A DNA stretch of 64,000 nt from contig OX638340.1 of the NCBI GenBank assembly GCA_951812955.1, positions 736,001 through 800,000 on the forward strand. The letters are read 5' to 3'. A program made the position numbers and the translations under genes. The notes under the pieces are model-generated. The model did not search any database. It was not told the origin of the DNA and saw only the letters and a list, made by a program, of their open reading frames with translations. Shown piece after piece: positions 3,288 to 57,416 of the stretch. How positions within the stretch are numbered: the stretch's first letter is position 1; each line of letters starts with the position of its first letter. The stretch is from an uncultured Gemmatimonadota bacterium. Its GTDB lineage: Bacteria > JAAXHH01.

Positions 3288-4919
3288 ATGTCGATCATGA
3301 AGAGACCGAAATACCTGATCCTGCTGGTTTTTGTAGCGGTCGGATCGTTCCTGCTGGGCAGTACGGCGGACAGGACGATACACGCGGCGGACAACATCTA
3401 CTCGAGCACCAGGCTGCTGATGGGCGTACTCAGCCTTGTCAACGACAACTATGTAGAGGAAGTAGAGCCCGGTGAGTTGATCTACGCCGCAATCGACGGT
3501 ATGCTCGAAGTGCTCGATCCTCATTCCAGTTTCCTGAGCAAGGAAACCTTTGCCGAAATGGGAGAACGCTTCAGTGGGAATTTCTACGGCATCGGGATCG
3601 AGTTCGACGTGCTGGATGGATTCCTGTACGTTATTTCCGTGATCGATGAATCGCCATCGGAAGCCGTTGGCCTCCAGTCCGGCGATCGTATTGTTCGGAT
3701 TGACGGTGAATCGGCGATAGGCATCAAGCATGACGAGGTCCGACATAAATTGCGTGGGGAGAAAGGAACCAGGGTGGACGTAACTATCGAACGGACCGGA
3801 GTCGACGAGCGGTTCGACGTTACGATCACCCGCGATCGGATTCCCATTCGCAGCGTTCGGACGTCCATCATGCTGGAAGACCAGACCGGATACATCCAGT
3901 TGATCCGGTTCGCCAAGACCACTTCGCGGGAACTCGAGACTGCCCTGGACAAGCTTCAACAAGACGGCATGGAGCGGCTGATACTCGACCTGAGAGGCAA
4001 TTCCGGAGGCTACCTGGACCAGGCGGTGGCGGTGTCGAGCAAGTTCATACCAGAAGGCCGCGTAATCGTTAAAACCATGGGCAGGAACCGGACTTCCAAC
4101 CAGACGTTTCAATCTCTTAGCGGAGTGCGCCACCGCGATATGCCCCTGGTGATCCTGCTGGACCATCGCTCCGCCTCCGCATCCGAAATCGTGGCCGGCG
4201 CCGTTCAGGACTGGGACCGGGGCGTGATTGCCGGAACCCGCAGTTTCGGCAAGGGTCTCGTACAGACTCTGTTCGCGGAGCCTCACCTGGCTGACGGTTC
4301 CGCGCTAAAACTGACGACGGCCCGATACTACACCCCAAGCGGTCGCATGATCCAACGGGACTATAAGAACAAATCCTACCAGGAGTACATCGAAGGCTCG
4401 TTCAGCGAATCCGGCGAGGCGGCGACGGGGGAGGATTCCGCTTCAGCATCGGACAACCCTGACCGCCCTGAATACGTCACCGCTGCAGGGCGTACAGTCT
4501 ACGGAGACGGCGGCATTTCTCCCGATGTCGTTATCAAGACGCCGAAACGCCAGTACCCCTTCGTTATAGGCAAGTACAGGGGCTGGATGCCTTTCGACCG
4601 GGCCTGTTTCGAATTCGCCAATACCTACGGCGTGACCCGGCCGGACCTCAGGGACGACTTCGACACCTTCCTGAACGAGTTTCAGGTCGACGAGGCCATG
4701 CTGGAAGCGTTCAAGACCCAGGTCCGGGAGTCCGGAATATCCTTCTCCGACGATGAATTCAGCGCCGATCTGGACGTCATCGAACTCCAGTTGAAACGGG
4801 CCCTTGCCCGGAATCTCTGGGGTGACGAGGAAGCCAGCCGCGTAGCCGCGGCCGGAGACGAACAACTCCAGCGGGCCCTTCTGTTGTTCAATTCTCACGA
4901 GATGCTGGTTCAGCACTAA
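3288..4919 (+). CDS. ctpA: carboxyl-terminal processing protease (S41 family, PDZ-containing)
   Basis: N-terminal TM/signal, a PDZ region (GLQSGDRIVRIDGES), and the S41 catalytic core LILDLRGNSGGYL...SASASEIVAGA...TRSFGKGLVQT. Confidence 0.85.
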   Translation: MSIMKRPKYLILLVFVAVGSFLLGSTADRTIHAADNIYSSTRLLMGVLSLVNDNYVEEVEPGELIYAAIDGMLEVLDPHSSFLSKETFAEMGERFSGNFYGIGIEFDVLDGFLYVISVIDESPSEAVGLQSGDRIVRIDGESAIGIKHDEVRHKLRGEKGTRVDVTIERTGVDERFDVTITRDRIPIRSVRTSIMLEDQTGYIQLIRFAKTTSRELETALDKLQQDGMERLILDLRGNSGGYLDQAVAVSSKFIPEGRVIVKTMGRNRTSNQTFQSLSGVRHRDMPLVILLDHRSASASEIVAGAVQDWDRGVIAGTRSFGKGLVQTLFAEPHLADGSALKLTTARYYTPSGRMIQRDYKNKSYQEYIEGSFSESGEAATGEDSASASDNPDRPEYVTAAGRTVYGDGGISPDVVIKTPKRQYPFVIGKYRGWMPFDRACFEFANTYGVTRPDLRDDFDTFLNEFQVDEAMLEAFKTQVRESGISFSDDEFSADLDVIELQLKRALARNLWGDEEASRVAAAGDEQLQRALLLFNSHEMLVQH

Positions 4920-4982
4920 CGAGTTTATAAAAGGGACCCGCGGACCGCGGAATAACAAGGCCACGCCGGAGAACGCCAAGGA

Positions 4983-7900
4983 TTGACCGTGCCGAGTAAA
5001 ACCTCCCTTTCCGCCTGGCACGCGCTGCGAGACCGGCTCCACGAACTTCGAATCCGCAGCCGTTGGGTTGTCATCGCCGAAGGCTTGTTCATCACCGGCG
5101 CGCTGATCTGCGTCCTCGCGCTTTCCCTCGCCACGCTCGAATCCTACCTCTACCTCGACCCGGTGGTTAGGCTGGTACTGATCTCGGCGAGTATCATGCT
5201 CCTGACGGCAGTGCTGGTCCGGCGAAATCTGCATCGTTTGAGACACGGTTTTTCCGACGATGACCTCGCGCGGCAGGTCGATTCCCAGTATCCTGAATTG
5301 AACGACCGGGTCACCGTGGCCTTGCAACTCTCCCGGCAGCGGGAAGAGGGATCCAAGGCCTCGCCCGCACTCCTGGACGCGGCCGTTACGGATGCCGCAA
5401 AATACACCCGGACGGTGGATTTCAAAGAAGCAGATCAAAGATTCCGCATCGCCCCGGCCGCCAAGAGATTCGGCCTTGCCGCGCTGCTATTGATACTGGC
5501 GATGGCCGCGTTCGGCGCGCCGCTTACCGGCGCCCTCGGCCGGCTGGCAAGCCCCCTGACCCATTTCCAGCCTCCGCAACGCACGTTTCTGAGCGTCCTG
5601 CCGGGAGACGTGGAAGTTGCGGCCGGAGGCCACGTAACGATTATGGCCGAAGCGGTCGGCGAGATGCCAGGCCGGGCCATCATGCACCTGACCTCGGACG
5701 AAGGATCGAGCAACTCCGTGGATATGAAGGCCACGGCGCCGGGTTCGTACTCCCACACCCTGCGGGAGATCAGGGAGAGTCTGACCTACGTAATCGAGGC
5801 CGGAGACGCCGTCAGCCATTCCTTTCGCATCAAAGCCATCGATCGCCCGTTCATCGGCGCGCTGCGCCTTACCTATCATTATCCTGCCTACACCAGGCTT
5901 GAACCCAGGACCACCACCGAAGGAGGCGACATCGTCGCACTGAAGGGAACGCGGGTGGAACTGGCCGCCGTGGATGCAAGCCGGAATCTGTCGGAAGCGG
6001 CGCTTTTCATCGAGCATTCAGACGAACCGGTAGCCATGAAGGTTGTAGACGACACGGCCACCGTACCGCTGACCGTGCAGTCAGATCAACGGTACCGCAT
6101 CATGTTGCGCAACATGGACGGCCATGAAAGCGCGGACCCCGCATGGTACCGGATTATCGCGTTGCCGGACCGCATGCCATCGCTCCGCATCCTGTCGCCC
6201 GGCCGAAATACAGATCTCACGGAGAACATGGTCGTTTCGTTTCTGGTATCAGGCACGGACGACTTCGGGTTCTCGGGAATGAACCTGGTCTACCGTAAAG
6301 AACCCGGAGGCGAGGAGCGGAACCTGCCCATCCCCGTGGACACGGAGTCCACGATGATTTCGCAGCCATTCGTCTGGGATCTCTCAAATGAAAACCTCTT
6401 TCCGGGGGACGTGGTCTCCTACCGGATCGAATTGTATGACAACGACACGATTTCGGGGCCGAAGCGGGCGGTAAGCCGCACCTATACGCTCCGGTTTCCT
6501 TCGATAGAAGAGATATACGATCAGATCGACGAAACACAGGAACAACAGGTCTCGGACATGGAGGATATGCTGGAAGAGCAGGAAGAAACCAGGAAGAAAA
6601 TCGAAGAACTGAATCGGACCCTCGAACAGAAAGCAAGGGAAGAAGCCGACGGGATTCAGTCGGAGGAATTGTCCTGGGAACAGAAAAAGGAGATCGAATC
6701 CGTTCTGACCGGCCAGGAACAGGCGACCGACGAACTCCTCAAAGCGGCCGAAGCGATCAGGGCGACCATGGAAACACTGGAAGACCACGATTCGCCCAGC
6801 CAGGAGCTCATCGACAAGATGGATCAACTGCGGAAGCTTTTTCAGGAGATCGCCACGCCCGAATTGCTGAAGGCTATGCAGGAATTGAAACAAGCCCTTC
6901 AGTCCTTCGACAACGAGCAGCTGAAGGCGTCGATGGAATCCTTCGAATTCGAGCAGGAAGAGTTTTTGAAACGACTGGAGCGCAGCCTCTCCATTCTGAA
7001 GCAAATCCGGATGGAGCAGCAGTTGATGGCTGCCGTTCGACAGACTCAGGACCTCGCTGCACGACAGGACGAGTTGCGCTACGCAACGGAGAATTCGTCG
7101 AACAGCGAAGAGCGATTGGAACTATCGGAAAAGCAGCAACAGTTAGGGGAGGACACAGGCTCCCTGCAGCGCGACCTGGAAAGTCTCGCCCGCGCGATGG
7201 AAGCGTTCAGGGACATGCCCGCAGAGCGTGTGCTCGAGGCCGCCGGCGATATGGAACGCCGGGATATGACGGGAAACATGGATCAGATCGCCGAACAATT
7301 GAAAGTCGGCAGGATGCAGCGGGCGATGGCAGGCCAACAGGAAATGTCCCGGGCGCTTTCCGGTCTGAACCAGCAACTGCAGGACATCCAGGATCAACTA
7401 CAGGAAGACCGGATGCGGGAAATCGCCGAAGGAATGCGCCGCGCGATGCACCAACTGGTCGATCTTTCCGTCAGCCAGGAGACCCTTAACGAACGCACCC
7501 GGAGCCCGGGTGGGTCCGGAACCCGGATCAACATTCTTACGGAAGACCAGCAGGGACTCCTTGGCGGCGCTTCGCTCGTGGCCAACGACATCGTATCCAT
7601 TGCGCAGAAAACGCCGTTCATTTCTCCTTCCATCGGACGAGCGCTGGGAGAAACACTGAACAGCATGGAGCGCGCGGAGGACCACCTGGCCGAACAGGAA
7701 CGCGATACGGCGTCCGGGGAACAACTGGCCGCCATGAAGTCTCTGAACGAGACCGTACTGGCCTTGCAGCGGTCCATGAGCAACATGGCGAATTCCGGTT
7801 CGTCCTCCGGCATGATGGATCTCATCGAAAGGCTTCAGGGCATGGCCAGGCAACAGACCGGAATTAACGACCAGATGGACCCGATGATGGATGAATCGAA

Positions 7901-8372
7901 CGGCAGCATGGACCTGGAAACCCAGGCACAGGTATCCAGGCTGGCAGCCAGGCAGGAAGCGTTGCGTAAGAGCCTGGAACAACTGCGTAGTGAGCAGCAG
8001 GGTCATCAGGAACAGATTCTCGGCAGGTTGCAGGAAATCGAAAACGAGATGGACGACACCGTACGTGAGTTGCAACAGTTCCGGGTCGACCCCGACCTGG
8101 TGGAGCGCCAGCAACGGATCCTGTCCAGGTTGCTGGACGCTTCGCGGTCCATTCGCGGACAGAAACGCGAGGAAAAGCGGCGAGCCGCACCTGGCGAGGA
8201 CCTCGTTAACCTTCCTGCGCCGGACGACTTGCCCGAAGATCTGACCCAGCTGGAACGCTCCCTCCGGGATGATATCCTGGGTCGTGTCGAAGAAGGCGCG
8301 TATCCCCGGGAATACGAAGAACTCATACGCGCCTATTTCCGCGCGCTTGCACACATTCCTGTAGTAAACTAG
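4983..8372 (+). CDS. large membrane-anchored coiled-coil protein (two N-terminal TM helices; possibly DUF4175-like), function unknown
   Basis: 1129 aa. Residues ~30-80 hold two hydrophobic helices. Residues ~500-1100 are an extremely E/Q/L/M/R-rich predicted coiled coil. No catalytic motif is recognisable. The DUF4175 assignment is from memory only. Confidence 0.6.
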   Translation: MTVPSKTSLSAWHALRDRLHELRIRSRWVVIAEGLFITGALICVLALSLATLESYLYLDPVVRLVLISASIMLLTAVLVRRNLHRLRHGFSDDDLARQVDSQYPELNDRVTVALQLSRQREEGSKASPALLDAAVTDAAKYTRTVDFKEADQRFRIAPAAKRFGLAALLLILAMAAFGAPLTGALGRLASPLTHFQPPQRTFLSVLPGDVEVAAGGHVTIMAEAVGEMPGRAIMHLTSDEGSSNSVDMKATAPGSYSHTLREIRESLTYVIEAGDAVSHSFRIKAIDRPFIGALRLTYHYPAYTRLEPRTTTEGGDIVALKGTRVELAAVDASRNLSEAALFIEHSDEPVAMKVVDDTATVPLTVQSDQRYRIMLRNMDGHESADPAWYRIIALPDRMPSLRILSPGRNTDLTENMVVSFLVSGTDDFGFSGMNLVYRKEPGGEERNLPIPVDTESTMISQPFVWDLSNENLFPGDVVSYRIELYDNDTISGPKRAVSRTYTLRFPSIEEIYDQIDETQEQQVSDMEDMLEEQEETRKKIEELNRTLEQKAREEADGIQSEELSWEQKKEIESVLTGQEQATDELLKAAEAIRATMETLEDHDSPSQELIDKMDQLRKLFQEIATPELLKAMQELKQALQSFDNEQLKASMESFEFEQEEFLKRLERSLSILKQIRMEQQLMAAVRQTQDLAARQDELRYATENSSNSEERLELSEKQQQLGEDTGSLQRDLESLARAMEAFRDMPAERVLEAAGDMERRDMTGNMDQIAEQLKVGRMQRAMAGQQEMSRALSGLNQQLQDIQDQLQEDRMREIAEGMRRAMHQLVDLSVSQETLNERTRSPGGSGTRINILTEDQQGLLGGASLVANDIVSIAQKTPFISPSIGRALGETLNSMERAEDHLAEQERDTASGEQLAAMKSLNETVLALQRSMSNMANSGSSSGMMDLIERLQGMARQQTGINDQMDPMMDESNGSMDLETQAQVSRLAARQEALRKSLEQLRSEQQGHQEQILGRLQEIENEMDDTVRELQQFRVDPDLVERQQRILSRLLDASRSIRGQKREEKRRAAPGEDLVNLPAPDDLPEDLTQLERSLRDDILGRVEEGAYPREYEELIRAYFRALAHIPVVN

Positions 8373-8381
8373 GCGGCGATC

Positions 8382-10262
8382 GTGTATCGCAGTTCCAGAA
8401 CGCAAAGCGGCAGTGCGACACCGCGACGTAGGAATCTCGTATGCGGTTTGCTCGCCGCGTTAATGACAGCTCAGTTATTGCTGTTCTCGAGTGCCGAAGG
8501 ACAGACCGGACGGACGGACGACCTGAACAGGAGGATCGAGCAGGCCAGGAGTCTGGAACGTCTCCGGCAATACGACAGGGCGGTTGCCATATTCGAGCGC
8601 GTGTTGCGGGATGCTCCGGACAACCGGTCCGCGCTCAACGGCGCCGTACGGCTTTACTTCCGGCTGAACGCCTTTGACCGGGCGATACCTCTGCTCGAGA
8701 CCCATATTGAGAAAAACCCCGACAGAATAAACCTGCGCGGCATGCTTGCCGAAGCGCTTTTCGGCGTCGGGCGGGACGGCGACGCGGAGGAACAGATCCG
8801 AATCCTGCAAGACCGTTTTCCGCAAAGTGAATCGGCCGTGAACGAGATCGCTTATCTGTACCTCGACAGGCAGGCGTACGACAAGGCCATCCAGACCTAC
8901 CTTTCCGGACGGAAAAGACTGGGCAAACCGGGGGCTTTCGCCCTTGGTCTCGCCAGTGTCTACACCAGTGCGTACGACATACCGGGCGCCGTACGAGAAT
9001 ACGTGCGGTGGTTGACGCAGCAACCCCGTCAGCAGCGTATCGTCAATGATCGCATCGACCTGCTCGCGGGTTCGGGAGGCCAGGAACTCGTTGAAGAGTC
9101 GCTGAAATCAGCGGTGTCCGAACATGGCGGCAGCAAGGATGCACACGATCTGCTCGGTAGTTTTTACCTGCGATCCGATAAACCCACTGAGGCCTTGGCC
9201 GCGTACCGCGTTGCGGACCGGTTGGACGGTGCCAGCGGGAAATACCTTATCCGGTTTGCGGAATGGGCCCTGCGGGAAGGGCACTATCGGAACGCCATTG
9301 GCACATATCAGGAATTGACCAGGACAACCATGTCGGATTCCCTGCGCGCCGAGGCCTATTCCGGCCTCGCCATGGCGTTTCAGGAAAGTGGCGCCGTGAA
9401 CGATGCCGCCGAGACCTACCGGAATATCATCGCGCAGTATCCGGGATCCAGGTTCCGCGAAGAGGCGATGTCCAACCTGGCGGACCTGCACCTTGTTCAC
9501 TACCGGGACGCGCCACAGGCCCTCGAACTGTACCGGTCGCTGCTGGACGGTCCGGACGACGCATCCACGTCGAAGTACCGTGAAAATGCCCTGTTTGGCA
9601 TCGCGGAGAGTTACGTCGTCATGGGCAGTCTCGAAGACGCGCTTGTCTATTACAACCGCATCAGGGACCCTGCTTCCGGATTCGCCGATTCTGAAACCCG
9701 TGCGCGGACGAATTACCATCTGGGTGAACTGGCGTTATTTCAGGGCCGATTGGACGAGGCCCTCGAACTATTCCACGAGACGGCAGACCGCTATTCGGGG
9801 AGTCCCTTTGCCAATGATGCGTTGGAATGGACCATCCTGATTGCCGAGGGCCGGCAGGGAGGAGACCGTTCGTTTACGGAGTATATCCGGTCGGTGCTGC
9901 TGCAACGTCGGCACAGGGACCTGGAAGCCCTGGCAGCCTGCAAGTCTCTAGTCGAGGAGCACGCGCAAAGTCCCATCGCGGACACAGTCATCCTGGACAT
10001 CGGGATGATACTCGACCGGCTGGGCAAGCCGTTCCAGGCGGTCGCGGCCCTTCGCGACCTGATCGAGCGGCATCCGGATAGCCGCCATAGCGCCACTGCC
10101 CGGCGGCGGATCGCGGAAATCTACGAAACTGGCATCGGTGATATCCCCCAGGCGCTCACGGAGTATGAGGCCCTGCTCCTGTCCCACCCGGACCACTTCA
10201 AAAACGACGCCGTCCGCCGCAAGATAAGAGAACTGACCGCAAACCATCCGCCCCTGCCGTGA
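8382..10262 (+). CDS. tetratricopeptide-repeat protein with an N-terminal signal/TM
   Basis: Repeated A-x-x-x-Y/F...G-x-x-x-A TPR-like units run along the whole length. A hydrophobic N-terminus is present. It lies 9 bp after the previous gene. Confidence 0.75.
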   Translation: MYRSSRTQSGSATPRRRNLVCGLLAALMTAQLLLFSSAEGQTGRTDDLNRRIEQARSLERLRQYDRAVAIFERVLRDAPDNRSALNGAVRLYFRLNAFDRAIPLLETHIEKNPDRINLRGMLAEALFGVGRDGDAEEQIRILQDRFPQSESAVNEIAYLYLDRQAYDKAIQTYLSGRKRLGKPGAFALGLASVYTSAYDIPGAVREYVRWLTQQPRQQRIVNDRIDLLAGSGGQELVEESLKSAVSEHGGSKDAHDLLGSFYLRSDKPTEALAAYRVADRLDGASGKYLIRFAEWALREGHYRNAIGTYQELTRTTMSDSLRAEAYSGLAMAFQESGAVNDAAETYRNIIAQYPGSRFREEAMSNLADLHLVHYRDAPQALELYRSLLDGPDDASTSKYRENALFGIAESYVVMGSLEDALVYYNRIRDPASGFADSETRARTNYHLGELALFQGRLDEALELFHETADRYSGSPFANDALEWTILIAEGRQGGDRSFTEYIRSVLLQRRHRDLEALAACKSLVEEHAQSPIADTVILDIGMILDRLGKPFQAVAALRDLIERHPDSRHSATARRRIAEIYETGIGDIPQALTEYEALLLSHPDHFKNDAVRRKIRELTANHPPLP

Positions 10263-10264
10263 CC

Positions 10265-11701
10265 ATGTCCAGATCGCTTCACATACATCTTGTGGCCATC
10301 TGCGGTACAGGGATGGGCGCGCTCGCGGTGATGCTCAAGTCTCTGGGTCACCGGGTTACCGGAAGCGACGAGAACGTCTATCCCCCAATGAGTACGGTGC
10401 TTTCGGAGCAGCGAATAACTGTATTTAATGGTTACGCCGCATCCAACCTGGATCCGCCGCCGGACCTAGTAGTCATCGGAAACGCGGTTTCCCGGGGCAA
10501 TCCCGAGGCCGAAGCGGTGCTCGAAAGGAAGATCCGGTATGCGTCCATGCCGGAGACACTCAAGACATTCTTTCTATGGGACCGCAAACCGGTCGTGGTG
10601 GCGGGAACACACGGCAAGACGACTACGACGGCGATGCTCGCATGGGTGTTCACCGAAGCCGGCCTGGATCCAAGCTACATTGTCGGCGGCGTTCCCATCG
10701 GCTGGCAGACCGGCGCGCGGCTGGGATCGGGCGACCTGTTCATCCTGGAAGGCGATGAATACGACAGCGCCTTCTTCGACAAACGTGCGAAGTTCCTTCA
10801 TTACCTGCCCGATACGGTGATCATAAACAACATCGAATTCGATCACGCGGACATTTACGATTCGCTCGATGAGATCGAGCTTGCCTTCAGAAGGCTGGTC
10901 AACATCATACCGGAAAACGGCCTGTTGATCGGCCCGGCGGACGACGCCCGTGTCCGGGCGCTCGCTTCACGCGCATTCTGCCCCGTCCATACCCTGGGCG
11001 CGTCACCGGACGCAAGGTGGTCGGTGCGTGACGTATCCAGCGATCCCGGCGGCACGTCCTTCGACCTGTATGAACTGGGTGAGCACCGCGCCCGTCTCAT
11101 GATCGGTCAACTCGGAATGCACAATGTCAGGAACGCCCTGGCGGTCGTGGCCGCCGCCAGGCATTACGGCGTATCCTGGCCGGATCTGACACGGAGCCTG
11201 AAGTCCTTCCCCGGTGTGAAGCGGCGTCTCGAAGAGCGGGGCGAAATAAATGGTATCGCGGTCTACGACGATTTCGCTCACCACCCCACGGCCGTAAAGG
11301 CGACGCTGGAAGCCCTCAGGAGGGCTTTTCAGGACCGGCGTATCTGGGCCGTATTCGAACCGCGTTCCGCCACGACCATACGCCGGAACTTCCAGGAAGC
11401 CTACGGCGCTGCATTCGACAACGCGGACCGCGTGCTGATCGCGCCGGTCTTTCTACCCGGCAAAGCGCCGGACGGCAACCGTTTTTCAGTGGACGAACTG
11501 TTGGATGGACTGCGCGGGCGGGGTCTGAAGGCCGTCGCCACGGAAAGCGTGGAACAAATCGTCGAACATCTAGCCGAGGAGGCGGCGCCGGGCGACCGGA
11601 TCGTGTTCATGAGCAATGGGGGATTCGGCGGTATCCTCGATAGGACTTTGAACGCGCTGGGGAAAAAACACGCGGTGGAAGCGTCCCGGAAACAGGACTA
11701 G
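10265..11701 (+). CDS. mpl: UDP-N-acetylmuramate:L-alanyl-gamma-D-glutamyl-meso-diaminopimelate ligase (murein peptide ligase)
   Basis: HIHLVAICGTGMGALA...VTGSDENVYPPMSTVL...VVAGTHGKTTTTAML aligns residue-by-residue with the E. coli Mpl N-terminus as I remember it. The start could be the GTG at 10259, which overlaps the upstream TGA. Confidence 0.85.
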   Translation: MSRSLHIHLVAICGTGMGALAVMLKSLGHRVTGSDENVYPPMSTVLSEQRITVFNGYAASNLDPPPDLVVIGNAVSRGNPEAEAVLERKIRYASMPETLKTFFLWDRKPVVVAGTHGKTTTTAMLAWVFTEAGLDPSYIVGGVPIGWQTGARLGSGDLFILEGDEYDSAFFDKRAKFLHYLPDTVIINNIEFDHADIYDSLDEIELAFRRLVNIIPENGLLIGPADDARVRALASRAFCPVHTLGASPDARWSVRDVSSDPGGTSFDLYELGEHRARLMIGQLGMHNVRNALAVVAAARHYGVSWPDLTRSLKSFPGVKRRLEERGEINGIAVYDDFAHHPTAVKATLEALRRAFQDRRIWAVFEPRSATTIRRNFQEAYGAAFDNADRVLIAPVFLPGKAPDGNRFSVDELLDGLRGRGLKAVATESVEQIVEHLAEEAAPGDRIVFMSNGGFGGILDRTLNALGKKHAVEASRKQD

Positions 11702-21865: not shown

Positions 21866-23437
21866 GTGTTACGATTCTACTGCCGTCTTGCCTGTCTGAT
21901 CTGCCTGCTTGTGGCCGGACCCGCTCCAGCACAGGAACAGGAAACCGCCGCGACGGGAGCGGATTCCACCAGCGCCGGCGTCGATCCCCTGCTTTTGCCG
22001 GCGAACAGTACCGGCGACATCGATTTCACCGTGGATGTGAGCGGTTTCAGGGGGCAGGAAGAACAGATCTACCTCGAGTTCTACCTGCTGTGCCGTCCCA
22101 GTGAATTTACGCTCGAAGAAAGAGACGACAGGAAATACGTCGCCGACTTCTCGATTGATCTGAGCGTCGTCGACGAACAGGACAGCACCGTATTCCATTC
22201 GGTTCAAAAAAGGGAATACCAGACGGACCGTCCTGTAGTCGTCACCAAAAGGGGCGAGGAAAGGGTTGTGATGGAACAGATCGCCGCGGGTGTTGCCGCG
22301 GGTACGTACCGCGCGAAAGTTATCGTGACCGACCTCAACTCCGATCGCTATGGCGAAGCTGTGAAACCCTTCGTGGCCCGGCCTTTTAACGATCCCGAAC
22401 TATCTGTGAGCAACCTGCAGTTATCGACGCTCATCCAGCGGACCGAAGAGGACAATCGCTTCACAAAAAACGGTCTGCTTGTACTGCCCAATCCCCTTAG
22501 GATTTTCGAGAAATGGACCGAAATGCCCGAGGACGGCGCTTACAAACCTCGCAACATGTTCCTTTATTTCGAGATATACAACCTGGTCCCGGATTCGACC
22601 GATCAAAAGGCCACATACGACATTTATCCCGCGGTTACCAGCCATGCCAACGAAATGACTTTTCCCCTCGCTCCCAAAAAGAACAGGCGCATTTCCGGTT
22701 CCGCCGGACTAGACGTGATCGCGCTGGACTACATGACCTTTCCCGATGGTATCTTTACCCTCGACATCAGGGTCAGGGACGTGCTGGCCGGGACGGAAGC
22801 GTCGAGTTCGGCCGTCTTCGAGATCATCCAGCCTCCACCACCGCCCCCGCCCGTCATGGTGTTGACCGAGGAACAGGCTAAGCGGGGCCGGAGGATGCTG
22901 GCGATCCTGGCGAACAAACGGGAGCGCGACCTCTACGACAATCTCGACCTCGAAGGCAAGACGGAATTCCTGATTGCCTTCTGGCGCATGCGCGATCCTA
23001 CGCCCGAGACCCCTGAAAACGAATCCATGATGGTGTTCAACGAGCGGTTTTCCTATGCCGACTTTCAACTGGGTGGGGCGGAAAGCGACCGGGGCGACGT
23101 CTTCATCCGATACGGCCAGCCAGAGGAAATCGAACGGCACGATTCCAACAACATCATGAAATCCTACCAGGTATGGTACTACACGGAAGGGGTACAAGGC
23201 GATCCTTCACGGACCTCCGAAGGCGGGCGCCATTTCTTCGTTTTTGGTGACCGGCGGGGCATCGGCAGGTACGAACTGGTGCATTCCTCGGCACGGGGAG
23301 AACTCTTCAATCCCAATTGGCGCCAGGACCTGCTCCTCATGAACGAAGCCTTATTTGAGGACGGCAGTGGTTTCATGACGAATCCGGGGCTGCTCGTACC
23401 CAACAGCAGTCCGGACGCCGATCCCGCCAAACCCTGA
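21866..23437 (+). CDS. secreted GWxTD-domain protein (variant motif GAESDRG)
   Basis: Signal peptide present. The C-terminal region FWRMRDPTPETPENE...LGGAESDRGDVFIRYGQPEEIERH matches the GWxTD-domain signature as I remember it, with W->A and T->S substitutions. A poly-Pro linker PPPPPPP sits at 22834-22854. Confidence 0.55.
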   Translation: MLRFYCRLACLICLLVAGPAPAQEQETAATGADSTSAGVDPLLLPANSTGDIDFTVDVSGFRGQEEQIYLEFYLLCRPSEFTLEERDDRKYVADFSIDLSVVDEQDSTVFHSVQKREYQTDRPVVVTKRGEERVVMEQIAAGVAAGTYRAKVIVTDLNSDRYGEAVKPFVARPFNDPELSVSNLQLSTLIQRTEEDNRFTKNGLLVLPNPLRIFEKWTEMPEDGAYKPRNMFLYFEIYNLVPDSTDQKATYDIYPAVTSHANEMTFPLAPKKNRRISGSAGLDVIALDYMTFPDGIFTLDIRVRDVLAGTEASSSAVFEIIQPPPPPPPVMVLTEEQAKRGRRMLAILANKRERDLYDNLDLEGKTEFLIAFWRMRDPTPETPENESMMVFNERFSYADFQLGGAESDRGDVFIRYGQPEEIERHDSNNIMKSYQVWYYTEGVQGDPSRTSEGGRHFFVFGDRRGIGRYELVHSSARGELFNPNWRQDLLLMNEALFEDGSGFMTNPGLLVPNSSPDADPAKP

Positions 23438-24910: not shown

Positions 24911-27181
24911 TTAGGACATTGCTTTCGCGGAGAAAATCCTCTCCACGCGATTGCGGATCCGGCCGGCCAGTCCGTTTCCATGGGGCAGCGCGACTTCGTG
25001 ATCGGCCGGGCCACCATCTCCGGCAATCCGTGCCGAGTTCCCCCCGGCTCGCGTACCCGAAAGCCAGTATTCTGCCAGCATGAGCGCCATCACCAGGACG
25101 ATCAGAGATTTCCAGATTTCATATCTGCCCGTGGCGCTGAAGGTCCCGCCGCGGAGGACGTCCGGGGAGCCGTCCAGGTCCTTCAGGACAAGATACGTGC
25201 CGTATCCGAGAAATCCGGCCGCCCGTACCGGGGTGAATCGAGCCAGGTCCGATTCCCGCGTGTCCGTGTTTACCGCGAACGCCTGCACGACGGCGTCACC
25301 GTCCCGCAGCGTATACACGCCGGGTTGTTTCGCATCCGGAACTTCCACCGTTATTCCGCTCCGGCCGATACGCGAATTGACCGTCTCCGAACGGCCCGTG
25401 GGATACTCCAGGTTGAGGTCGGCGTTCGCCGGAACGCCGATCAACGGCTGCACCACCGGGTGACCGGCCAGAAATCCTCCATCGGCAACCGTCACGGCGG
25501 GATGTAGATACCTGACGCCTCGATGCATGAACGGTACAAAAGCGCTTCTCAATGCCAGGTCGCTCCAACCGGTGTTCACGTCTGAAGCGACCAGAAGCGC
25601 CCTCCCGCTGCCGGATCGGCCTTCGAGAATCGCCGGCGTGCCGTCCATGAACCGGGCGATCACCCGCGCGCCGCGGTCCGCCTCCACGGCATAGGAAGCA
25701 TAGAACCGCACCGCGCCGGTCGACATCGATTCTGCGGAACGGCCATCGAAGCGGAAAACCGGATGCTCGTAATCGACCTGGTCAATCCGGTGAAAGGACG
25801 TCTTCCGGTCCGGCATCCCCCTTCGAGCCGTAATCGAGCATCCGAAGACATCAGAAAAAAACCCGTGTCTATAAACCGCCGGGGCCACCCCTTCTCCGAG
25901 AAATACCAGGACCCCGCCACCGGAGGAAATGTAACGCTCCATGCTAGCAAGCCGCGCCGGCGTCAGTTCCATTCCTCCATCCACGATCAGTACGCCCGAT
26001 TCGTACAAATCGCTATTCAACACGTCGGCGGATGCAGTCCGCAGGTCCACGGGCGTGACCAATCCGCCCGACGGCTTCAGCACCTGCTCGATGAAGTACC
26101 TGGATTCGGTCAGTCCAACGGCGGTAACGCCAAACGCTTCCGGGACATTGAGGGTGAAATACCGCCGATTGTCTGCTGCGAGGTCATCTTCGTCCAGTTC
26201 CACATAACCGGAATACCGGCCCGGGTTGTCGATGACGACATTGAACTGAACTGAACCCGTTCCGCCCGTCTCGGCAGTAACCTGGCGGCTGTCACGCGTC
26301 TCGCCGTTTATGACGAGACGGACTTCCCTGGTCCGACTGGTCTGCCCGGTCCGACTGGTCTGCCCGGTGCGCGCCGATGCCTCGTTCCGGCTGGTAAAAG
26401 TCGCGACAAACTGCTCCGGCTGATTGCGGATCAGCAGGCCCTCGCTTACGGAAACTGCGTCGATACTTGCGTTGTCCACGTCCCTTGCCGCGTAGGGATA
26501 CAGGTAAATAGGCGTATGCGGTTCCGATTGCGCTGTCGAGTCGGTTTCCGCCATATCCTGCCAGTCGGTTCGCTGTAAATCGGACAGCAGGTGGATTTCC
26601 TTGTTCGCAGAAACAACGCCGGCCAGTTTTAGCCGCGCGAGACTCAGGGCGCCGGCGATATCCCCCGTTCTTTCCGATACTTCCGCTTCCGCCAGGCGCG
26701 CTCTGAGCACTTCCTTCCGGGCCGTGGGAACTTGCGGCATGGTCTCGGGCGGCATGGCCGACAGAATGAGCAGGCCCTCGTCGCCTTGCCGCATCCTGTC
26801 GATAATTCGGCCGGCCTCGGCCCTGGCAGCGGCAAATGGCGTATCTCCGTAGCGTCCGGCACCCATGCTGTACGAATTGTCCAGCACAATGGTATAGACC
26901 GTCCGCTGCTCCAAACCGCTGCCGAACATGGCGCCCGCCAGGCCTTCAAGAACCGGCCTGGCGAAAGCCAGCACCAGAAACAGAATGATCAGGGTGCGAA
27001 GCAATAGAAGCAGAAGTTCCCGGAGTCTCAGGGCCCGGGATCGTTGCAGGTGATGACCCCTGATGAAAATCACGGAGCTGAAGTCGACGGTGGAGACCCG
27101 CTGGCGATGAAACAGGTGCATGATCAGCGGAACGGCGACCGCTACGAGTCCAAACAGCATCAGCGCGTTCAGAAAGGTCAT
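24911..27181 (-). CDS. BatA-like membrane protein: N-terminal double-TM domain plus VWA domain
   Basis: MTFLNALMLFGLVAVAVPLIMHLF, then a second TM, is a BatA/TIGR02226-like N-terminus. The MIDAS-like motif VLDNSYSMG is present. The track ORF starts at 27205. Confidence 0.7.
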   Translation of the reverse strand: MTFLNALMLFGLVAVAVPLIMHLFHRQRVSTVDFSSVIFIRGHHLQRSRALRLRELLLLLLRTLIILFLVLAFARPVLEGLAGAMFGSGLEQRTVYTIVLDNSYSMGAGRYGDTPFAAARAEAGRIIDRMRQGDEGLLILSAMPPETMPQVPTARKEVLRARLAEAEVSERTGDIAGALSLARLKLAGVVSANKEIHLLSDLQRTDWQDMAETDSTAQSEPHTPIYLYPYAARDVDNASIDAVSVSEGLLIRNQPEQFVATFTSRNEASARTGQTSRTGQTSRTREVRLVINGETRDSRQVTAETGGTGSVQFNVVIDNPGRYSGYVELDEDDLAADNRRYFTLNVPEAFGVTAVGLTESRYFIEQVLKPSGGLVTPVDLRTASADVLNSDLYESGVLIVDGGMELTPARLASMERYISSGGGVLVFLGEGVAPAVYRHGFFSDVFGCSITARRGMPDRKTSFHRIDQVDYEHPVFRFDGRSAESMSTGAVRFYASYAVEADRGARVIARFMDGTPAILEGRSGSGRALLVASDVNTGWSDLALRSAFVPFMHRGVRYLHPAVTVADGGFLAGHPVVQPLIGVPANADLNLEYPTGRSETVNSRIGRSGITVEVPDAKQPGVYTLRDGDAVVQAFAVNTDTRESDLARFTPVRAAGFLGYGTYLVLKDLDGSPDVLRGGTFSATGRYEIWKSLIVLVMALMLAEYWLSGTRAGGNSARIAGDGGPADHEVALPHGNGLAGRIRNRVERIFSAKAMS
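26330..26365. repeat. perfect in-frame 18-bp tandem duplication (GGTCCGACTGGTCTGCCC x2) inside the BatA-like CDS
   Basis: Seen directly. On the minus strand it encodes TGQTSR-TGQTSR. Confidence 0.9.
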
Positions 27182-27412
27182 TCGACTTCCTCCACGTGGG
27201 TTCATTAATATACCCCCGGCACCTTCGCTCGTAAAGCGGTATCATCGGCTGGCCGGAGGCTGCTTGTGCGGGAATCAGCGGCACATTACAGGCGGGCGCG
27301 GGCCGGCCGGATGGCGTGTTCAGGGTCGATTTTCCTTGACACACCGGTCGGCTGGGGGTATCGTATTTCTACTATTCGGTCAAACCCGCTGGCAACCCCA
27401 GAAGGAGCGTTT

Positions 27413-28596: not shown

Positions 28597-30384
28597 ATGC
28601 GAAAAAGTATCAAGCACATCCTCTTTCTCGAACCGAAATCCTCCCATCTGCACGTGTATTCGGACGCGTACATTCCGCGTATCGGCTGCCTGGTGCTCGC
28701 GACGATCATGCGGAAACTGGGTTACGGCGTGCGGGTGATGCTGGAAGAAGTGGAGGAGATCGATACCAACGAGTTCGGGGAAGCCGACCTGATCTGCATA
28801 TCCTCCCTGACCTCGACGGCGCCCGGGTCCTACCAGTACGCCGATTTCATCCGGAACGTCTATCCGGAAAAGACGATCGTGATGGGCGGGACGCACCCGA
28901 CTTTCGTACCCGATGAAGCCCTCCAACACAGCGATTTCGTGGTGCGCGGCGAGGGGGAGGAAGCGCTGGTCGAGCTGGTCAAGTGCCTGGAATCCGGCGC
29001 CGACTACCGCGGCATCGCCAATCTCTCCTGGGTGGAAGACGGCCAGGCGATCCACAATCCGGAGCGACCGAAGGCGGAAGACCTGGACGTGCTGCCCATA
29101 CCGGACTTCAGTCTGGTTCCTTCCGGCCGACTGGATATCATGTCGATACAGACACAGCGTGGCTGCCCGTGGGACTGCAGTTTCTGCACAGTGACCAAGT
29201 TGAACGGGCACAAGTTGCGCGGCCATTCGGTCGAACGCGTGCTCGATATGCTGGAAGCCTATACGAAGATGCCGAATTTCAGCTACCTCTTTTTCGCAGA
29301 TGATATCTTCAACGTGCCAGTGGATCGCACCATGGCCATCATGCAGGGCATGATCGACCGCAGGCTGACCATACCGTGGGCCGCGCAGATGCGCCACGAA
29401 ATCTCGAAGCAGCCGGAGTTGATGAAGAAGATGCGCGAGGCGGGATGTGACCGCGTGATGATCGGTTTTGAATCCATCGACGAAACGGCCCTCGAGCTGT
29501 ACGGCAAGAAAGAGACTGCGCTGGACGTAGAACGGGCCATCGACGCGATCCATGACCACGGGATCGATCTCCACGCCATGTTCATTGCCGGCGCAGATTC
29601 GGATCATCCGGAAACCATCAAGACGCAGTTCGAATTCGCCAAGAAGAAGGACCTGGCGACCTCGCAGTGCATGATCCTGACGTATCTGCCCGGTTCCGAA
29701 GACACCATCCGTTACGATCTCCAGGGCGGCGAGTACCTGAGCCACGACTGGAGCCACTACGACGGCCACCATGCCAATCACCCCGTCCCGAACATGACCC
29801 GTTACGAACTGGTCAACACGGTGATGGAAGGCATGAAGGGGATGTACGCGCCGCACCGTATCCTGTCCAAGCTGGGCAGCGCGGCATGGAACGCGGTCAA
29901 GTTAAACAAGCGGGAGGCTACGCGGCAACTGCGTAACGGCCTGCTCCGGCTGAACGGCTACTCCATCCTGCAGCGGTGGTTCACGGAGCACACCGACTAC
30001 CTGGCCGGTCTTCGCGCCGAAAACGTGTCTCTGTCACCGGATCGCTACAAGCGCGTGCTCCTGGCCGTTTCCAACGTGGACGTGAGCCGCGTGCTCCACA
30101 AGTTCCTGGACGAGATGAACATACGCGTAGAAGAATACAGCGAGGAAAAACTCTCCGCCCTCAAGGATTCCGACCTCGTCGTCATGGCGGGAGAGATGGT
30201 GGACGACGTGAGGGCCAAGGTCCAGAACCTGCACATCTTCCCGGTACACGACAAGAATACGCGTATGGACCGGACCCTGACCCAACTCGGCATCCTCTTC
30301 ACCGAGAACGTGGACAAGGTACGCGAGGCCATTGCCGCAGTGCACTTCCAGCCCGGCCAGAGCAAGGTGGCGGCGAAAAGTTGA
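28597..30384 (+). CDS. B12-binding domain radical SAM protein (class B) with a ~190-aa C-terminal extension
   Basis: N-terminal cobalamin-binding Rossmann region (DLICISSLTS...IVMGGTHPT), a radical-SAM cluster motif CPWDCSFC (CxxxCxxC), and strong GC3 bias throughout. AGGAG RBS present. Confidence 0.8.
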   Translation: MRKSIKHILFLEPKSSHLHVYSDAYIPRIGCLVLATIMRKLGYGVRVMLEEVEEIDTNEFGEADLICISSLTSTAPGSYQYADFIRNVYPEKTIVMGGTHPTFVPDEALQHSDFVVRGEGEEALVELVKCLESGADYRGIANLSWVEDGQAIHNPERPKAEDLDVLPIPDFSLVPSGRLDIMSIQTQRGCPWDCSFCTVTKLNGHKLRGHSVERVLDMLEAYTKMPNFSYLFFADDIFNVPVDRTMAIMQGMIDRRLTIPWAAQMRHEISKQPELMKKMREAGCDRVMIGFESIDETALELYGKKETALDVERAIDAIHDHGIDLHAMFIAGADSDHPETIKTQFEFAKKKDLATSQCMILTYLPGSEDTIRYDLQGGEYLSHDWSHYDGHHANHPVPNMTRYELVNTVMEGMKGMYAPHRILSKLGSAAWNAVKLNKREATRQLRNGLLRLNGYSILQRWFTEHTDYLAGLRAENVSLSPDRYKRVLLAVSNVDVSRVLHKFLDEMNIRVEEYSEEKLSALKDSDLVVMAGEMVDDVRAKVQNLHIFPVHDKNTRMDRTLTQLGILFTENVDKVREAIAAVHFQPGQSKVAAKS

Positions 30385-30530
30385 TGAGGTGACGGTCGGC
30401 CAGCCTGCGGTTGATTCAATTTAGGTCGGTCAACCCCTGCCGTTAATTCGGTTTGGACCGTCTGGTAGCTGCTTCTGCTTACGACGGCACCTGTTGCAAT
30501 AACATCGATATACAGAAAGAGAGATCTACC

Positions 30531-30815
30531 ATGGCCGCGTACATTATCGTGGAATACGTCGTAACGGACGAGGATGCCTTCGCAGAGTTCAGCAAAAGGA
30601 CCGCAGCAGCCGTAGAAGCCCATGGCGGCAGGTATCTGGTCCGCGGCGCCGTGGAAGTCCTGGATGGGGATTGGACGCCGGAACGCATGGTCGTCGTGGA
30701 ATTTGAAAACAGCGACGCGGCGAGGGCCTGGCTGGACTCTTCGGATTACGCTGAACTCAAGGCATTGCGCCAGCGGGCTACCAGAGCCAGCGTGGTCTTT
30801 GCCGAGGGTGTTTGA
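30531..30815 (+). CDS. DUF1330-family small protein
   Basis: ~95 aa, MAAYIIVEYVVTD...RYLVRGG...VVVVEFENSDAARAWLDS..Y..LK..R pattern. Assigned from memory. The track ORF starts at 30453. Confidence 0.55.
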   Translation: MAAYIIVEYVVTDEDAFAEFSKRTAAAVEAHGGRYLVRGAVEVLDGDWTPERMVVVEFENSDAARAWLDSSDYAELKALRQRATRASVVFAEGV

Positions 30816-30989
30816 GCTGGACGGGCCGGTTAGTTCGAAAAGTGCCGGCCCGAATTGATGTCGTACATACAGCCCTGCCTGCAAATCCGTTCTGAGCAGT
30901 CCGCTCTAGCGGATTCAGTGAGATTCCTACCTCAGCCATACTTGAGCAATACCCCAGTCATTTACTGAGCCAATTCTGCATTTAGATCA

Positions 30990-31286
30990 CGAATTTTGAG
31001 AAAATTTGGCAGGGAATTGGATTCCGACGATGAGGCGCGGTCTGTCCTCAGTGAGCCTTCTTAAGTTGCATTCAATCTGGCTGCCATGTCAGAACTGGTC
31101 AGATTGATTGAAGATGGCGCCATAGCGTATCGACATGGATGGCGAAATCGATCGACGTCCATGCACAATCTCATTAATTGGACGTGGTGCAACCCCGATT
31201 GCACGCGCCATGAAATTCTGCGAAATGCCCATCGGCTTGAGGTACTCCTCAAGTAGAACCTCGCCGGGTGTTATGGGTTTTTGCAT
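30990..31286 (-). pseudogene. higA: HigA-family (XRE HTH) antitoxin interrupted by an in-frame TGA at 31089-31091; orphan, with no HigB
   Basis: [48 protein letters not shown] matches the HigA consensus HPGEIL.EEFLEPLG.SQ..LA.ALGV....I..IV.G.R. The ORF stops at FNQSDQF*. Read-through as Trp gives FWHGSQIECNLRRL, aligning with the family's conserved FWLNLQ..YDL tail. Confidence 0.5.
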
Positions 31287-31332
31287 AGTTATTCCTACTA
31301 CTGGAAACTACTGGTTTGGTGTACTACTAAGA

Positions 31333-33003
31333 CTAATTAACCAAATACCATTTTAGGTTCGAACCTGGAAGGTTAACTTTCACTTCCTTGAATTCAAGGA
31401 GATCCAGATTTCCTGTAAATTCACCCCGCAGTAAAACTCCTTGATCTTCATACGGTCCGATGAGAGAGTCTTCCTTATTGTCAAGTTTAATCTTCTTACC
31501 GTCTAAGGTTTCGAAAGTAATGTCCTTGAACTCTCGTGGCTTGCCAATGTCAGCCGTTGCATACACGTTTCCAAGCACCTGGTTTGCGTCCAGAGAGTAC
31601 CTTTGGGCCACAGACTCAGTCGTCGACCTTTGACTGTGCATCTCTATTGTTACCACTTCAACACCATCCTTATTGCGTCCCACAACACGTACAGGTTCTC
31701 CAAATGCTGAGACACGAGAATCGGTAACCGCTGCTATCCGATCATCAAGCAATGGATGTGTTCGGAACGCCGTAAGGTTCTTTCCATCTTCCCCTGTAAA
31801 GTAGTCCGAATAATACCGTAGTTTCCTCAATACCAGGCTAAAGGCATCGATGCCGCGCTGACCGTACAGCCGTTCCATGTACAATGCCGCCATCGCATCT
31901 GCTTCTTCCTCCATAGAGCGCGGATAGCCTTCATAGAAAACATCTGTAGCCGCTTTTGCGAATATGTATGTTAATCCTCCCAAGACCTGGATTTCGTCAT
32001 CAGATTTCCCCGAAGCAGCACCTACTGCCGCAGCGAATATGCTCAACCCCGTTGCTATAAGTTGCTTCTTCTTCTGATTCTGGTAAATTCGATAGCTATG
32101 TCGTCTTTCTACGTGTGCGATTTCATGTGCCAGTACAGCTTCGATCTCCAGATCGCTCTCTGAAGATTCCAACAAACCTCGATTTACGTATACAAAACCA
32201 GTTGGTACTGCGTACGCGTTGATCTCATCGTCTTCCATAACCGAGAATCGATAGTCGTAACCTTGTAGGGGTATAGGCCAGTGATCCAACACGCGTTTTC
32301 CTATCTCCCTTGCCCGGGACTGAAGGTCATCATCAGTCGCCATCTGATTCGCACTCTGGATCACTTGCACTGAGTACAATCCAAGTACACGTTCAGTGGA
32401 ATAGTCACTTACTAGTGGAGTCGATTTAAAACACAATGCACACGGGCGCATTCCCGTTTCTTCCGCTTCTTCAATTGAACCAAAAGGATGCTGCATGTCA
32501 GGATGAGGTAAATGATTGCTGGACGCCACATGGTACATTTTACTATCAGTGTTTCCTATCAATACTTCATATTCAGTGGAATGTTCATCCAACCTGAAAC
32601 ATAAAGCCAAACCCGTTTTAAATGCCTCCCGACCCATTACCGGTGAATGCAAGGGAGAAGAAAAACGAACCTGGCCCTTGCCCAGTCGAGTGCTTCTGAC
32701 TTCTACTTCTATTCGGTCTTCCTTTGCCTTGATTGATCGAATCTCGATCGGTTCATCTTTGGGGATTCGGAACAGATTACGATAACGTCTAGAATGGGCG
32801 TAATAATAGGTATTACCCTCGTGTTGATAGTAAGTCAGAGGATTTTGATGTATACTGCCTCTAAGTATTGCCTGACGTCCTTTTAATTCATTCTCTAGTT
32901 CCTTTACCATCTTCGAGGATACTTTTTGTGCAAATAGGTCTTCAGAAGCCACGAGACAAATCACGATGCACATATACCGAACTAAATTGCGGTCCATAAA
33001 CAT
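31333..33003 (-). CDS. secreted M48-family zinc metallopeptidase (BepA/HtpX-like HEIAH...RRH) with long unknown N- and C-terminal regions
   Basis: HExxH zinc motif AHEIAHVERRHS. N-terminal signal/TM. The gene is markedly AT-richer (~45% GC by eye) than its surroundings. The track ORF extends to 33051. Confidence 0.7.
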   Translation of the reverse strand: MFMDRNLVRYMCIVICLVASEDLFAQKVSSKMVKELENELKGRQAILRGSIHQNPLTYYQHEGNTYYYAHSRRYRNLFRIPKDEPIEIRSIKAKEDRIEVEVRSTRLGKGQVRFSSPLHSPVMGREAFKTGLALCFRLDEHSTEYEVLIGNTDSKMYHVASSNHLPHPDMQHPFGSIEEAEETGMRPCALCFKSTPLVSDYSTERVLGLYSVQVIQSANQMATDDDLQSRAREIGKRVLDHWPIPLQGYDYRFSVMEDDEINAYAVPTGFVYVNRGLLESSESDLEIEAVLAHEIAHVERRHSYRIYQNQKKKQLIATGLSIFAAAVGAASGKSDDEIQVLGGLTYIFAKAATDVFYEGYPRSMEEEADAMAALYMERLYGQRGIDAFSLVLRKLRYYSDYFTGEDGKNLTAFRTHPLLDDRIAAVTDSRVSAFGEPVRVVGRNKDGVEVVTIEMHSQRSTTESVAQRYSLDANQVLGNVYATADIGKPREFKDITFETLDGKKIKLDNKEDSLIGPYEDQGVLLRGEFTGNLDLLEFKEVKVNLPGSNLKWYLVN

Positions 33004-33092
33004 CCTCCTAGTAGTAAGTTTGTAGTTGTGAATCACCTGTGCTATTACCATGTCCTGCTATTACCAAATTTCAGAAAGCTTGCTTTATTAGC

Positions 33093-40464: not shown

Positions 40465-40493
40465 TCGTTTCCTTTTTGTCCTGTTCTATAGAC

Positions 40494-40522
40494 GGAACGT
40501 ACCTGGCGCGGAACGTACGTAC
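40494..40522. promoter_or_regulatory. direct repeat GGAACGTAC x2; the second copy forms GAACGTACGTAC, a near Cheo-type LexA box (GAAC-N4-GTTC)
   Basis: Seen directly. It lies 30-58 bp upstream of the helicase start codon. Confidence 0.25.
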
Positions 40523-40738
40523 TCCGAACTTGTCCACGAAATCCCGGCGGGATTCGCAGGTACGATCGAAATCCATGGGGCAAGTTATCCGTCAACATGT
40601 ACTCTTTACAGTCGGCGCGATGATGCCAATCTCGAAACAATGGACCGAAACCGGATTGCGAAGGGTCCGCACCATCTCGCGCAATATGTTGATGGATCGT
40701 TAATTGCCGGTTATTTTCGGTTTGAGGAGGCCAGCGCT

Positions 40739-51336: not shown

Positions 51337-51345
51337 AGGGGTAGC

Positions 51346-57404: not shown

Positions 57405-57416
57405 CTTGGTCAGATC

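Follow-up and report, generated by a model that had tools for sequence, protein, structure and literature searches.

What does a bacterium do with a membrane protein of 1129 residues in which no enzymatic domain can be recognized? The question is raised by an open reading frame (ORF) at positions 4983–8372 (+ strand) of a 64,000-nucleotide stretch of contig OX638340.1 (GenBank assembly GCA_951812955.1, positions 736,001–800,000) from an uncultured Gemmatimonadota bacterium; this whole stretch is referred to below as the window. An earlier note, made from the letters of the window, described the product as a giant membrane-anchored coiled-coil protein. Judged by its profile match, the protein is a member of the widespread DUF4175 family, which is already known but has no assigned function. 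Its domain anatomy, conservation and gene neighborhoods lead us to propose, as an idea with an even chance of being right, that it is a structural scaffold that is anchored in the inner membrane, crosses the periplasm and docks secreted partners, in the service of envelope integrity and division.

A single, conserved gene

The ORF starts at a TTG codon (4983) or at an in-frame GTG two codons on (4989) and ends with a TAG stop codon at 8370–8372. A database search with the translated protein returned 83 homologues, many of which cover 97–100% of the query at ~26–96% sequence identity, and full-length homologues of the same length span 19% to 97% identity. In an alignment of 38 sequences, 37 of the homologues are 1097–1153 residues long, and 18 invariant columns are spread along the protein. 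The profile of this alignment matches 29,516 representative proteins at E≤1e-3 and 13,752 clusters at E≤1e-30 in a database of 1.84 billion cluster representatives (clustered at 50% identity). This conservation, the constant length and the matches to the family profile therefore exclude the alternative, raised in the earlier note as a possible refutation, that the frame comprises two genes. The interval 4983–8372 is a genuine, single, well-conserved gene. A scan of the sequence for promoters and terminators gave fewer sites than were found in shuffled controls.

Membership in the DUF4175 family

The match to Pfam family PF13779 (DUF4175) scores 47.9 bits against a gathering cut-off of 27.3 (E = 7.2e-13) and extends over residues 272–968 of the protein and positions 175–768 of the 825 of the model. 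The same family is matched by 37 of the 38 aligned homologues, with a best E-value of 1e-41. The resemblance to DUF4175-type proteins, proposed in the earlier note, is thus confirmed. The match is modest and leaves the N-terminal ~270 and the C-terminal ~160 residues uncovered. Besides the above-cut-off hidden Markov model match, the protein shares with PF13779 the plan of a large membrane-anchored protein without an enzymatic domain: it has N-terminal anchor segments and a long non-enzymatic extracytoplasmic region, for which the charge rule and the secreted partners (see below) suggest a periplasmic location. The subfamily typical of the Fibrobacterota-Chlorobiota-Bacteroidota (FCB) superphylum, with 1100–1150 residues, three immunoglobulin (Ig)-like domains and DUF4159 and TPR neighbors, represents a divergent branch of PF13779, and many of its members have no precomputed Pfam match in the database.

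Scans against Pfam and NCBIfam revealed no enzymatic domain, in agreement with the absence of enzymatic motifs noted before. No NCBIfam family was matched at E≤0.01, and the sole match in a PDB sequence search, a Lon protease fragment with an E-value of 0.05, is noise. When the parts of the protein were scanned alone against Pfam (E≤10), the transmembrane (TM) and beta regions gave no match, and the helical part gave sub-threshold DUF4175 and chance matches only. No characterized family supersedes DUF4175 in the Pfam, NCBIfam or PDB sequence searches; a clear match to such a family would have spoken against the earlier description.

Two sets of proteins in the literature bear the same or a related family name. 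TIGR02302, which we take to be the alphaproteobacterial branch of DUF4175 and to be part of the NCBIfam set scanned, is an equivalog to which the window protein does not belong (no NCBIfam match at E≤0.01); therefore, experimental data on TIGR02302 proteins are not directly transferable. These alphaproteobacterial proteins are TM-anchored, and both their regulation and a mutant phenotype connect them with the envelope. RSP_0730 of R. sphaeroides, annotated as a "TIGR02302 family protein", is a direct, activated and non-essential member of the regulon of CenR, a regulator of envelope and division whose targets also include tolQRAB, surA and mlaC (PMC9275681). A TIGR02302 mutant of A. caulinodans is described as overproducing exopolysaccharide and as defective in infection (Sato et al. 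2016, as cited in PMC6842974).

DUF4175 itself is named only in passing in the literature searched, where the bacterial mentions concern AdvA of A. baumannii, a protein with two N-terminal TM helices, a database DUF4175 annotation and a role in cell division (PMC7481262). The DUF4175 match of AdvA is N-terminal, upstream of residues 203–238 and adjoining the two TM helices (PMC7481262), and probably excludes the Ig-like and helical stalk described below; the defining domain of AdvA is reported to have a nucleotidyl-cyclase-like fold (PMC13060281). AdvA shares N-terminal TM helices and the annotation with the window protein. It was rejected as a functional analogue, since the annotation sits by the TM helices and the characterized domain is unrelated, and it is not regarded as a true relative of the stalk.

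Predicted structure and topology

An AlphaFold2 (AF2) model computed on the alignment is locally confident, with a mean predicted local distance difference test score (pLDDT) of 81.5, but not globally, with a predicted template-modeling score (pTM) of 0.48. Hydropathy analysis indicates three TM-like segments, at residues 29–47 (2.47), 61–79 (2.51) and 163–181 (2.27), which correspond to AF2 helices 10–56, 60–87 and 153–176. Membrane anchoring is thereby supported, and the two N-terminal TM helices counted previously become three. The first two segments (TM1 and TM2) form a predicted hairpin (5067–5219, + strand) that follows an Arg-rich N-terminus. Between TM2 and TM3 lies a small helical domain (residues 80–160; 5220–5462, + strand), predicted to be cytoplasmic, with AF2 helices at residues 92–102, 109–121, 128–142 and 147–150 and with a conserved motif, SDxxLAxxV...PxLxDRLxxALQL, in the alignment consensus. 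TM3 is encoded at 5469–5525 (+ strand). Based on the positive-inside rule, the Arg-rich N-terminus and a basic stretch past TM2 point to a topology in which the N-terminus is inside, the hairpin is followed by a cytoplasmic insert of ~80 residues, TM3 leads outward, and the remaining ~945 residues are periplasmic.

The first part of the predicted periplasmic region consists of three tandem beta-sandwich domains of the Ig/FN3/macroglobulin-like type (residues ~200–290, 291–396 and 397–505; 5580–6497, + strand), into which the AF2 strands between residues 201 and 504 fold with pLDDT values of 77–93. Foldseek matches of this region include FNIII1–3 of sDscam, D1–D4 of ICAM-5 and the macroglobulin domains of C3 and C5. 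The third Ig-like domain is, along with helices 1006–1066, the most conserved region of the protein, and is marked by invariant residues D426, D427 and G429 (DDFGFS motif), W465, and D486, N487, D488 and G492 (DNDTVSGPK motif). A beta-rich stretch had been noticed here before and was given ~400 residues; it is indeed beta-rich and measures ~300 residues (~200–505) in the AF2 model.

The remainder is helical, with 17 AF2 helices of 14–63 residues each from residue 508 to 1123. Charged and polar residues (E, Q, K, R and D) make up 34–51% of every 100-residue block between residues 501 and 1100. In the 38-sequence alignment, the helical half is conserved equally to the beta domains and is nearly gap-free. 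A Fourier scan of hydrophobic positions detected strong heptad periodicity solely in windows covering residues 505–616 and 981–1064; the continuous periodicity over hundreds of residues that characterizes a canonical two-stranded coiled coil was not found. Of the ~600 residues of near-continuous, heptad-like E/Q/L/M/R sequence described in the earlier note, the E/Q/L/R enrichment holds and the continuity does not, being reduced to two heptad-strong regions. Likewise, the protein is helical as described, while the term coiled coil is imprecise, as the helices match four-helix bundles; a low-complexity character is contradicted by the fixed length and the conservation. According to the model, the helical half is a defined set of helices of fixed length that matches four-helix bundles, rather than a low-complexity coiled coil; a floppy linker would fit the constant length and near gap-free conservation less well than a defined architecture does. 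The likeness to the tandem-bundle rods of talin and vinculin and to designed four-helix bundles is at the level of the fold only (4–19% identity) and implies neither common descent nor function.

Neighboring genes and their conservation

In the window, the DUF4175 gene is the second in a row of four genes on the + strand. Upstream lies ctp (3288–4919), which encodes a C-terminal processing peptidase of the S41 family (Ctp/Prc type; Pfam Peptidase_S41 and PDZ; TIGR00225, 290 bits); the enzyme contains a PDZ domain, and its N-terminus forms a membrane anchor or signal. Downstream, only 9 nt separate the DUF4175 stop codon from a gene (8382–10262) for a 626-residue TPR protein with YbgF-type repeats (Pfam TPR; TIGR02795, 96.4 bits with a cut-off of 90.1) and a signal-peptide-like N-terminus. 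The junction sequence shows that the start of the next gene, mpl (10259–11701), either abuts the stop codon of the TPR gene or overlaps it; its product is the UDP-N-acetylmuramate:L-Ala-gamma-D-Glu-meso-diaminopimelate ligase of peptidoglycan recycling (TIGR01081, 469.5 bits with a cut-off of 388.7). CpoB (YbgF) is a protein of ~260 residues, with which the TPR partner shares the YbgF-type repeats but not the size. A GC-rich palindrome, CCCGCGGACCGCGGA, is located at 4937–4951 within the 63 nt that separate ctp from the DUF4175 gene; it is not followed by a run of T on the + strand.

A genome scan with a 12-sequence alignment found at least 449 relatives, and the best 79 species-level loci were examined by searching their ORFs with reference proteins. 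These loci fall into a close clade and a distant set. The close clade comprises 24 metagenome-assembled genomes (MAGs) labeled Latescibacterota, Gemmatimonadota or "bacterium", the best of which, the OY762445.1 chromosome, carries an orthologue with 97% identity, whose surroundings were covered over ±10 kb. The order ctp-DUF4175-TPR-mpl is maintained in this clade, with ctp in 21 of 21, the TPR gene in 21 of 22, and mpl in 21 of 21 loci; a DUF4159 gene immediately upstream was found in none of 22.

The distant set consists of 55 loci at ~30% identity, from KSB1, Calditrichota, Zixibacteria, Ignavibacteria, and Bacteroidota- and Chlorobi-labeled MAGs. Here, a gene for a secreted DUF4159 protein directly precedes the DUF4175 gene (45/49 loci), the orthologous TPR gene follows it in half of the loci (22/44), and genes for SurA-like chaperones are found upstream (17/43). 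Just past the TPR gene, 17 of 40 loci encode a secreted protein of ~425 residues without a Pfam match (for example, L004:13176–14423, L005:13227–14492, and 15 further loci); these loci are of the KSB1/Calditrichota type, and the gene has no counterpart in the window. The DUF4159, TPR and ~425-residue neighbors all have signal peptides. The DUF4159 protein of one distant locus, L007 (17261–18043), begins with MTRRQFLRHLG..., a signal of the twin-arginine type, by which the protein would leave the cytoplasm already folded and perhaps loaded with a cofactor.

In 13 distant loci, the DUF4159-DUF4175 pair is located directly behind ftsZ. The full order murC-murB-ftsQ-ftsA-ftsZ-DUF4159-DUF4175 is seen in nine of these and is complete except for murC in one more, while the upstream sequence of the remaining three is too short to extend beyond ftsZ. 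Loci linked in this way to the division and cell wall (dcw) cluster include L073 (2820–13279, an Ignavibacterium album MAG), L050, L063, L070, L071, L076, L078, L079, L081 and L084. No description of this linkage was found in the literature searched.

Proposed function as a periplasmic scaffold

In the proposed scaffold, the TM hairpin, the small cytoplasmic insert and TM3 would hold the protein in the inner membrane, and the ~945 periplasmic residues would form a stalk of three Ig-like domains followed by a helical-bundle rod of fixed length. Docking sites for secreted partners would be provided by the rod and by the third Ig domain, which is highly conserved; the partner here would be the putatively co-transcribed 626-residue TPR protein, and in other FCB lineages the secreted DUF4159 protein would dock as well. 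The assembly may connect the peptidoglycan and the outer membrane with the inner membrane and help to keep the envelope intact while cells grow and divide. At the level of the family, the protein may ancestrally have been the periplasmic arm of an envelope system of the MoxR-DUF58-BatA/VWA ("Bat/Cmd") type; in the lineage of the window, it would have parted from that system and now reside among genes for peptidoglycan and envelope functions (ctp and mpl). We favor the scaffold because its presumed partners are extracytoplasmic, as judged by their signal peptides, and because of the operon packing, the envelope-gene neighborhoods and the constant length of the protein. The two MoxR-linked relatives, the control of RSP_0730 by CenR (given that TIGR02302 is a branch of DUF4175) and the defects reported for a Rhizobium MoxR operon mutant (see below) also speak for it.

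Several observations weigh against this proposal. Its support comes from sequence, predicted structure and gene neighborhoods, so that binding to the partners, to peptidoglycan and to the outer membrane is a prediction only, and the topology derives from hydropathy and the charge rule alone. With a pTM of just 0.48, the domain arrangement and the reach of the stalk are not fixed by the model. The adjacency to ctp and mpl, confined to one clade, might be a gene order that was simply inherited and says nothing about function. Only two remote relatives, scoring 149 and 113 bits, support the link to the Bat system: MoxR adjoins DUF4175 in only one of the 55 distant loci and in none of the 24 close ones (78 of 79 loci are without an adjacent ATPase module), and MoxR, DUF58 and DUF4159 are all absent from the 64-kb window.

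A further-reaching version, which we regard as rather unlikely, is that DUF4175 and its secreted TPR partner, joined by DUF4159 in most FCB lineages, constitute an unrecognized and very widespread trans-periplasmic machine, a functional counterpart of Tol-Pal/CpoB. Such a machine would couple divisome and peptidoglycan-synthesis events at the inner membrane to the outer envelope layers. If it exists, it would explain why the genes directly follow ftsZ where the dcw cluster ends in genomes of the Ignavibacteria type, and why they lie beside ctp and mpl here.

Relationship to MoxR-VWA systems and other alternatives

Bat/Cmd operons, known from Bacteroides, spirochaetes and Rhizobium, comprise a MoxR AAA+ ATPase, DUF58, the VWA proteins BatA and BatB, the TPR proteins BatC and BatE, and BatD; they pair TPR proteins with BatD. 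BatD is a beta-sandwich protein. Residues 187–506 of the window protein, scanned alone, gave no Pfam match at E≤10, and thus none to PF13584, which we take to be the BatD model. These operons have been linked to envelope integrity in Rhizobium and to aerotolerance in Bacteroides, by a mechanism that is not known; mutation of the R. leguminosarum MoxR operon RL3499–RL3502 is reported to lead to defects in cell morphology and the envelope (Vanderlinde et al. 2011; PMC5700661). The Arc2 MoxR/VWA cluster of P. aeruginosa, with a defence phenotype, was set aside, as nothing in the available portion of its description (PMC8926400) links Arc2 to DUF4175.

The strongest alternative, possible though clearly less probable than the scaffold, is that the DUF4175 protein is a dedicated client or adaptor of such a MoxR AAA+/VWA chaperone, remodeled or assembled by the ATPase, DUF58 and BatA/VWA, with a role specific to stress or aerotolerance. 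It overlaps with the scaffold rather than excluding it. In its favor, two distant DUF4175 genes share an operon with MoxR, DUF58 and BatA/VWA, and such operons also contain DUF4159, the near-constant neighbor in FCB lineages, and a TPR protein: in L007 the order is DUF4175-TPR/Peptidase_MA_2-MoxR-DUF58-BatA/VWA-DUF4159, and in the cultured Gemmatirosa kalamazoonensis (L088; plasmid 1, a 1.1-Mb replicon, NZ_CP007129.1 725360–750697, which is without annotation in PLSDB) it is DUF4159-MoxR-DUF58-BatA/VWA-DUF4175, followed by three permease genes of the MacB/FtsX type. A BatA/VWA homologue is also encoded in the window, as the earlier note had observed. This gene (24911–27205, − strand; the end of 27181 given before is a second ATG) specifies a 764-residue membrane protein with a BatA N-terminal domain (Pfam BatA, 62.1 bits), a VWA_2 domain (31.6 bits) and a C-terminal TM segment, and its product matches the BatA of L007 in phmmer with an E-value of 1.9e-54. 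However, the gene is unlinked, 16.5 kb from DUF4175 on the opposite strand between hflX and carA, and a phmmer search of the 64-kb window found neither MoxR nor DUF58, so the single operon seen in the two remote relatives is not present here. The scarcity of MoxR beside DUF4175 in the relatives points the same way, and the literature searched does not settle what Bat systems do.

A profile of 52 DUF4159 sequences likewise found no DUF4159 in the window (best E = 0.39). The BatA/VWA protein was considered as a supplier of this domain and rejected, as it did not match the profile and reached at best 4.4 bits in single-sequence phmmer comparisons. Its middle region has a weak, sub-threshold match to GATase1_like (E = 0.009).

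A transmembrane sensor or transducer, in which the periplasmic Ig and bundle region would sense the state of the envelope or ligands and the 80-residue cytoplasmic insert would relay the signal, seems highly improbable: no kinase, GGDEF, anti-sigma or HAMP output domain was found in Pfam or NCBIfam scans, the four-helix-bundle matches are generic and headed by designed proteins, and no regulator gene is consistently adjacent. More improbable still is the periplasmic arm of an ion-driven, force-transducing machine akin to GldM/PorM, TolA or TonB, in which a motor or stator would engage the TM hairpin and conformational energy would travel along the stalk to reach the outer membrane. The window protein does share with GldM/PorM and TolA an inner-membrane anchor and an elongated periplasmic stalk, which combines helical and Ig-like domains; the periplasmic domain of GldM is among its Foldseek matches (rank 39, E = 5e-4), and the downstream partner carries TPR repeats of the YbgF/CpoB type typical of Tol-Pal. 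Nevertheless, sequence homology is lacking, GldM has the opposite domain order (in the window protein, Ig-like domains come first and helices last), and the query-normalized template-modeling score (TMq) of the match is 0.13. No motor or stator genes of the ExbB/TolQ/MotA/GldL type were detected beside DUF4175 in annotated contexts, and no conserved charged residue was identified in the TM segments. Accordingly, with a weak Foldseek match, no Pfam match and no stator gene among annotated neighbors, the protein is not assigned to the GldM/PorM-type stalks of the type IX secretion system. Finally, an artefact, be it a long ORF that arose by chance in GC-rich DNA, a two-gene fusion or biased filler without specific function, suggested by the E/Q/L/R-rich C-terminal half and by the many overlapping spurious ORFs of the window (60% GC), is refuted by same-length homologues at 19–97% identity, 18 invariant columns over 38 sequences, 13,752 family clusters at E≤1e-30 and a confident AF2 model (pLDDT 81.5).

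Other features of the window

The GC content falls to ~0.51 at 30001–34000, compared to ~0.60 elsewhere, and this stretch may be horizontally acquired; it contains an ORF without a Pfam match (30045–30884) and genes for an M48 peptidase (31333–33051) and a sulfatase (33093–34502). A gene for tRNA-Leu(CAG) was located by ARAGORN at 57321–57405 (+ strand), while a scan of the window at Rfam gathering thresholds reported no family, tRNA included. ORFs of 315–523 residues without a significant Pfam match are found at 21866–23437 (+), 44671–45918 (+), 50665–51789 (−) and 55215–56162 (−). The second of these, which has only a weak match to the N-terminal part of glycosyltransferase family 2, adjoins a gene of the GDP-mannose-dehydratase/epimerase family (43622–44635) and the undecaprenyl-pyrophosphatase gene bacA (45993–46826). 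The listed ORF for an aldose-1-epimerase (40127–41839, +) overlaps the gene for a 985-residue UvrD-type helicase (37507–40464, −) by ~340 nt; the true epimerase start is probably well downstream of the listed one, because the Pfam match starts only at residue 223.

Implications for the DUF4175 family

The copy in the window is an ordinary DUF4175 member in an uncultured lineage. Through it, the ~13,700 clusters of this family, which have no assigned function, gain an anatomy, in which three predicted TM segments are followed by three Ig-like domains and a conserved rod of helical bundles, and an envelope-related set of neighbors: the secreted TPR protein, DUF4159, the dcw cluster, SurA-like chaperones, Ctp and Mpl, and remote MoxR-VWA operons. 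Of most interest as a lead is that, across the FCB superphylum, the gene is repeatedly linked to genes of division, peptidoglycan and outer-membrane biogenesis; studies of the family could draw on Gemmatirosa kalamazoonensis, which can be cultured. If the protein is indeed a scaffold, it would represent a new component both of the unexplained Bat/MoxR-VWA systems and of envelope biology in the FCB superphylum.

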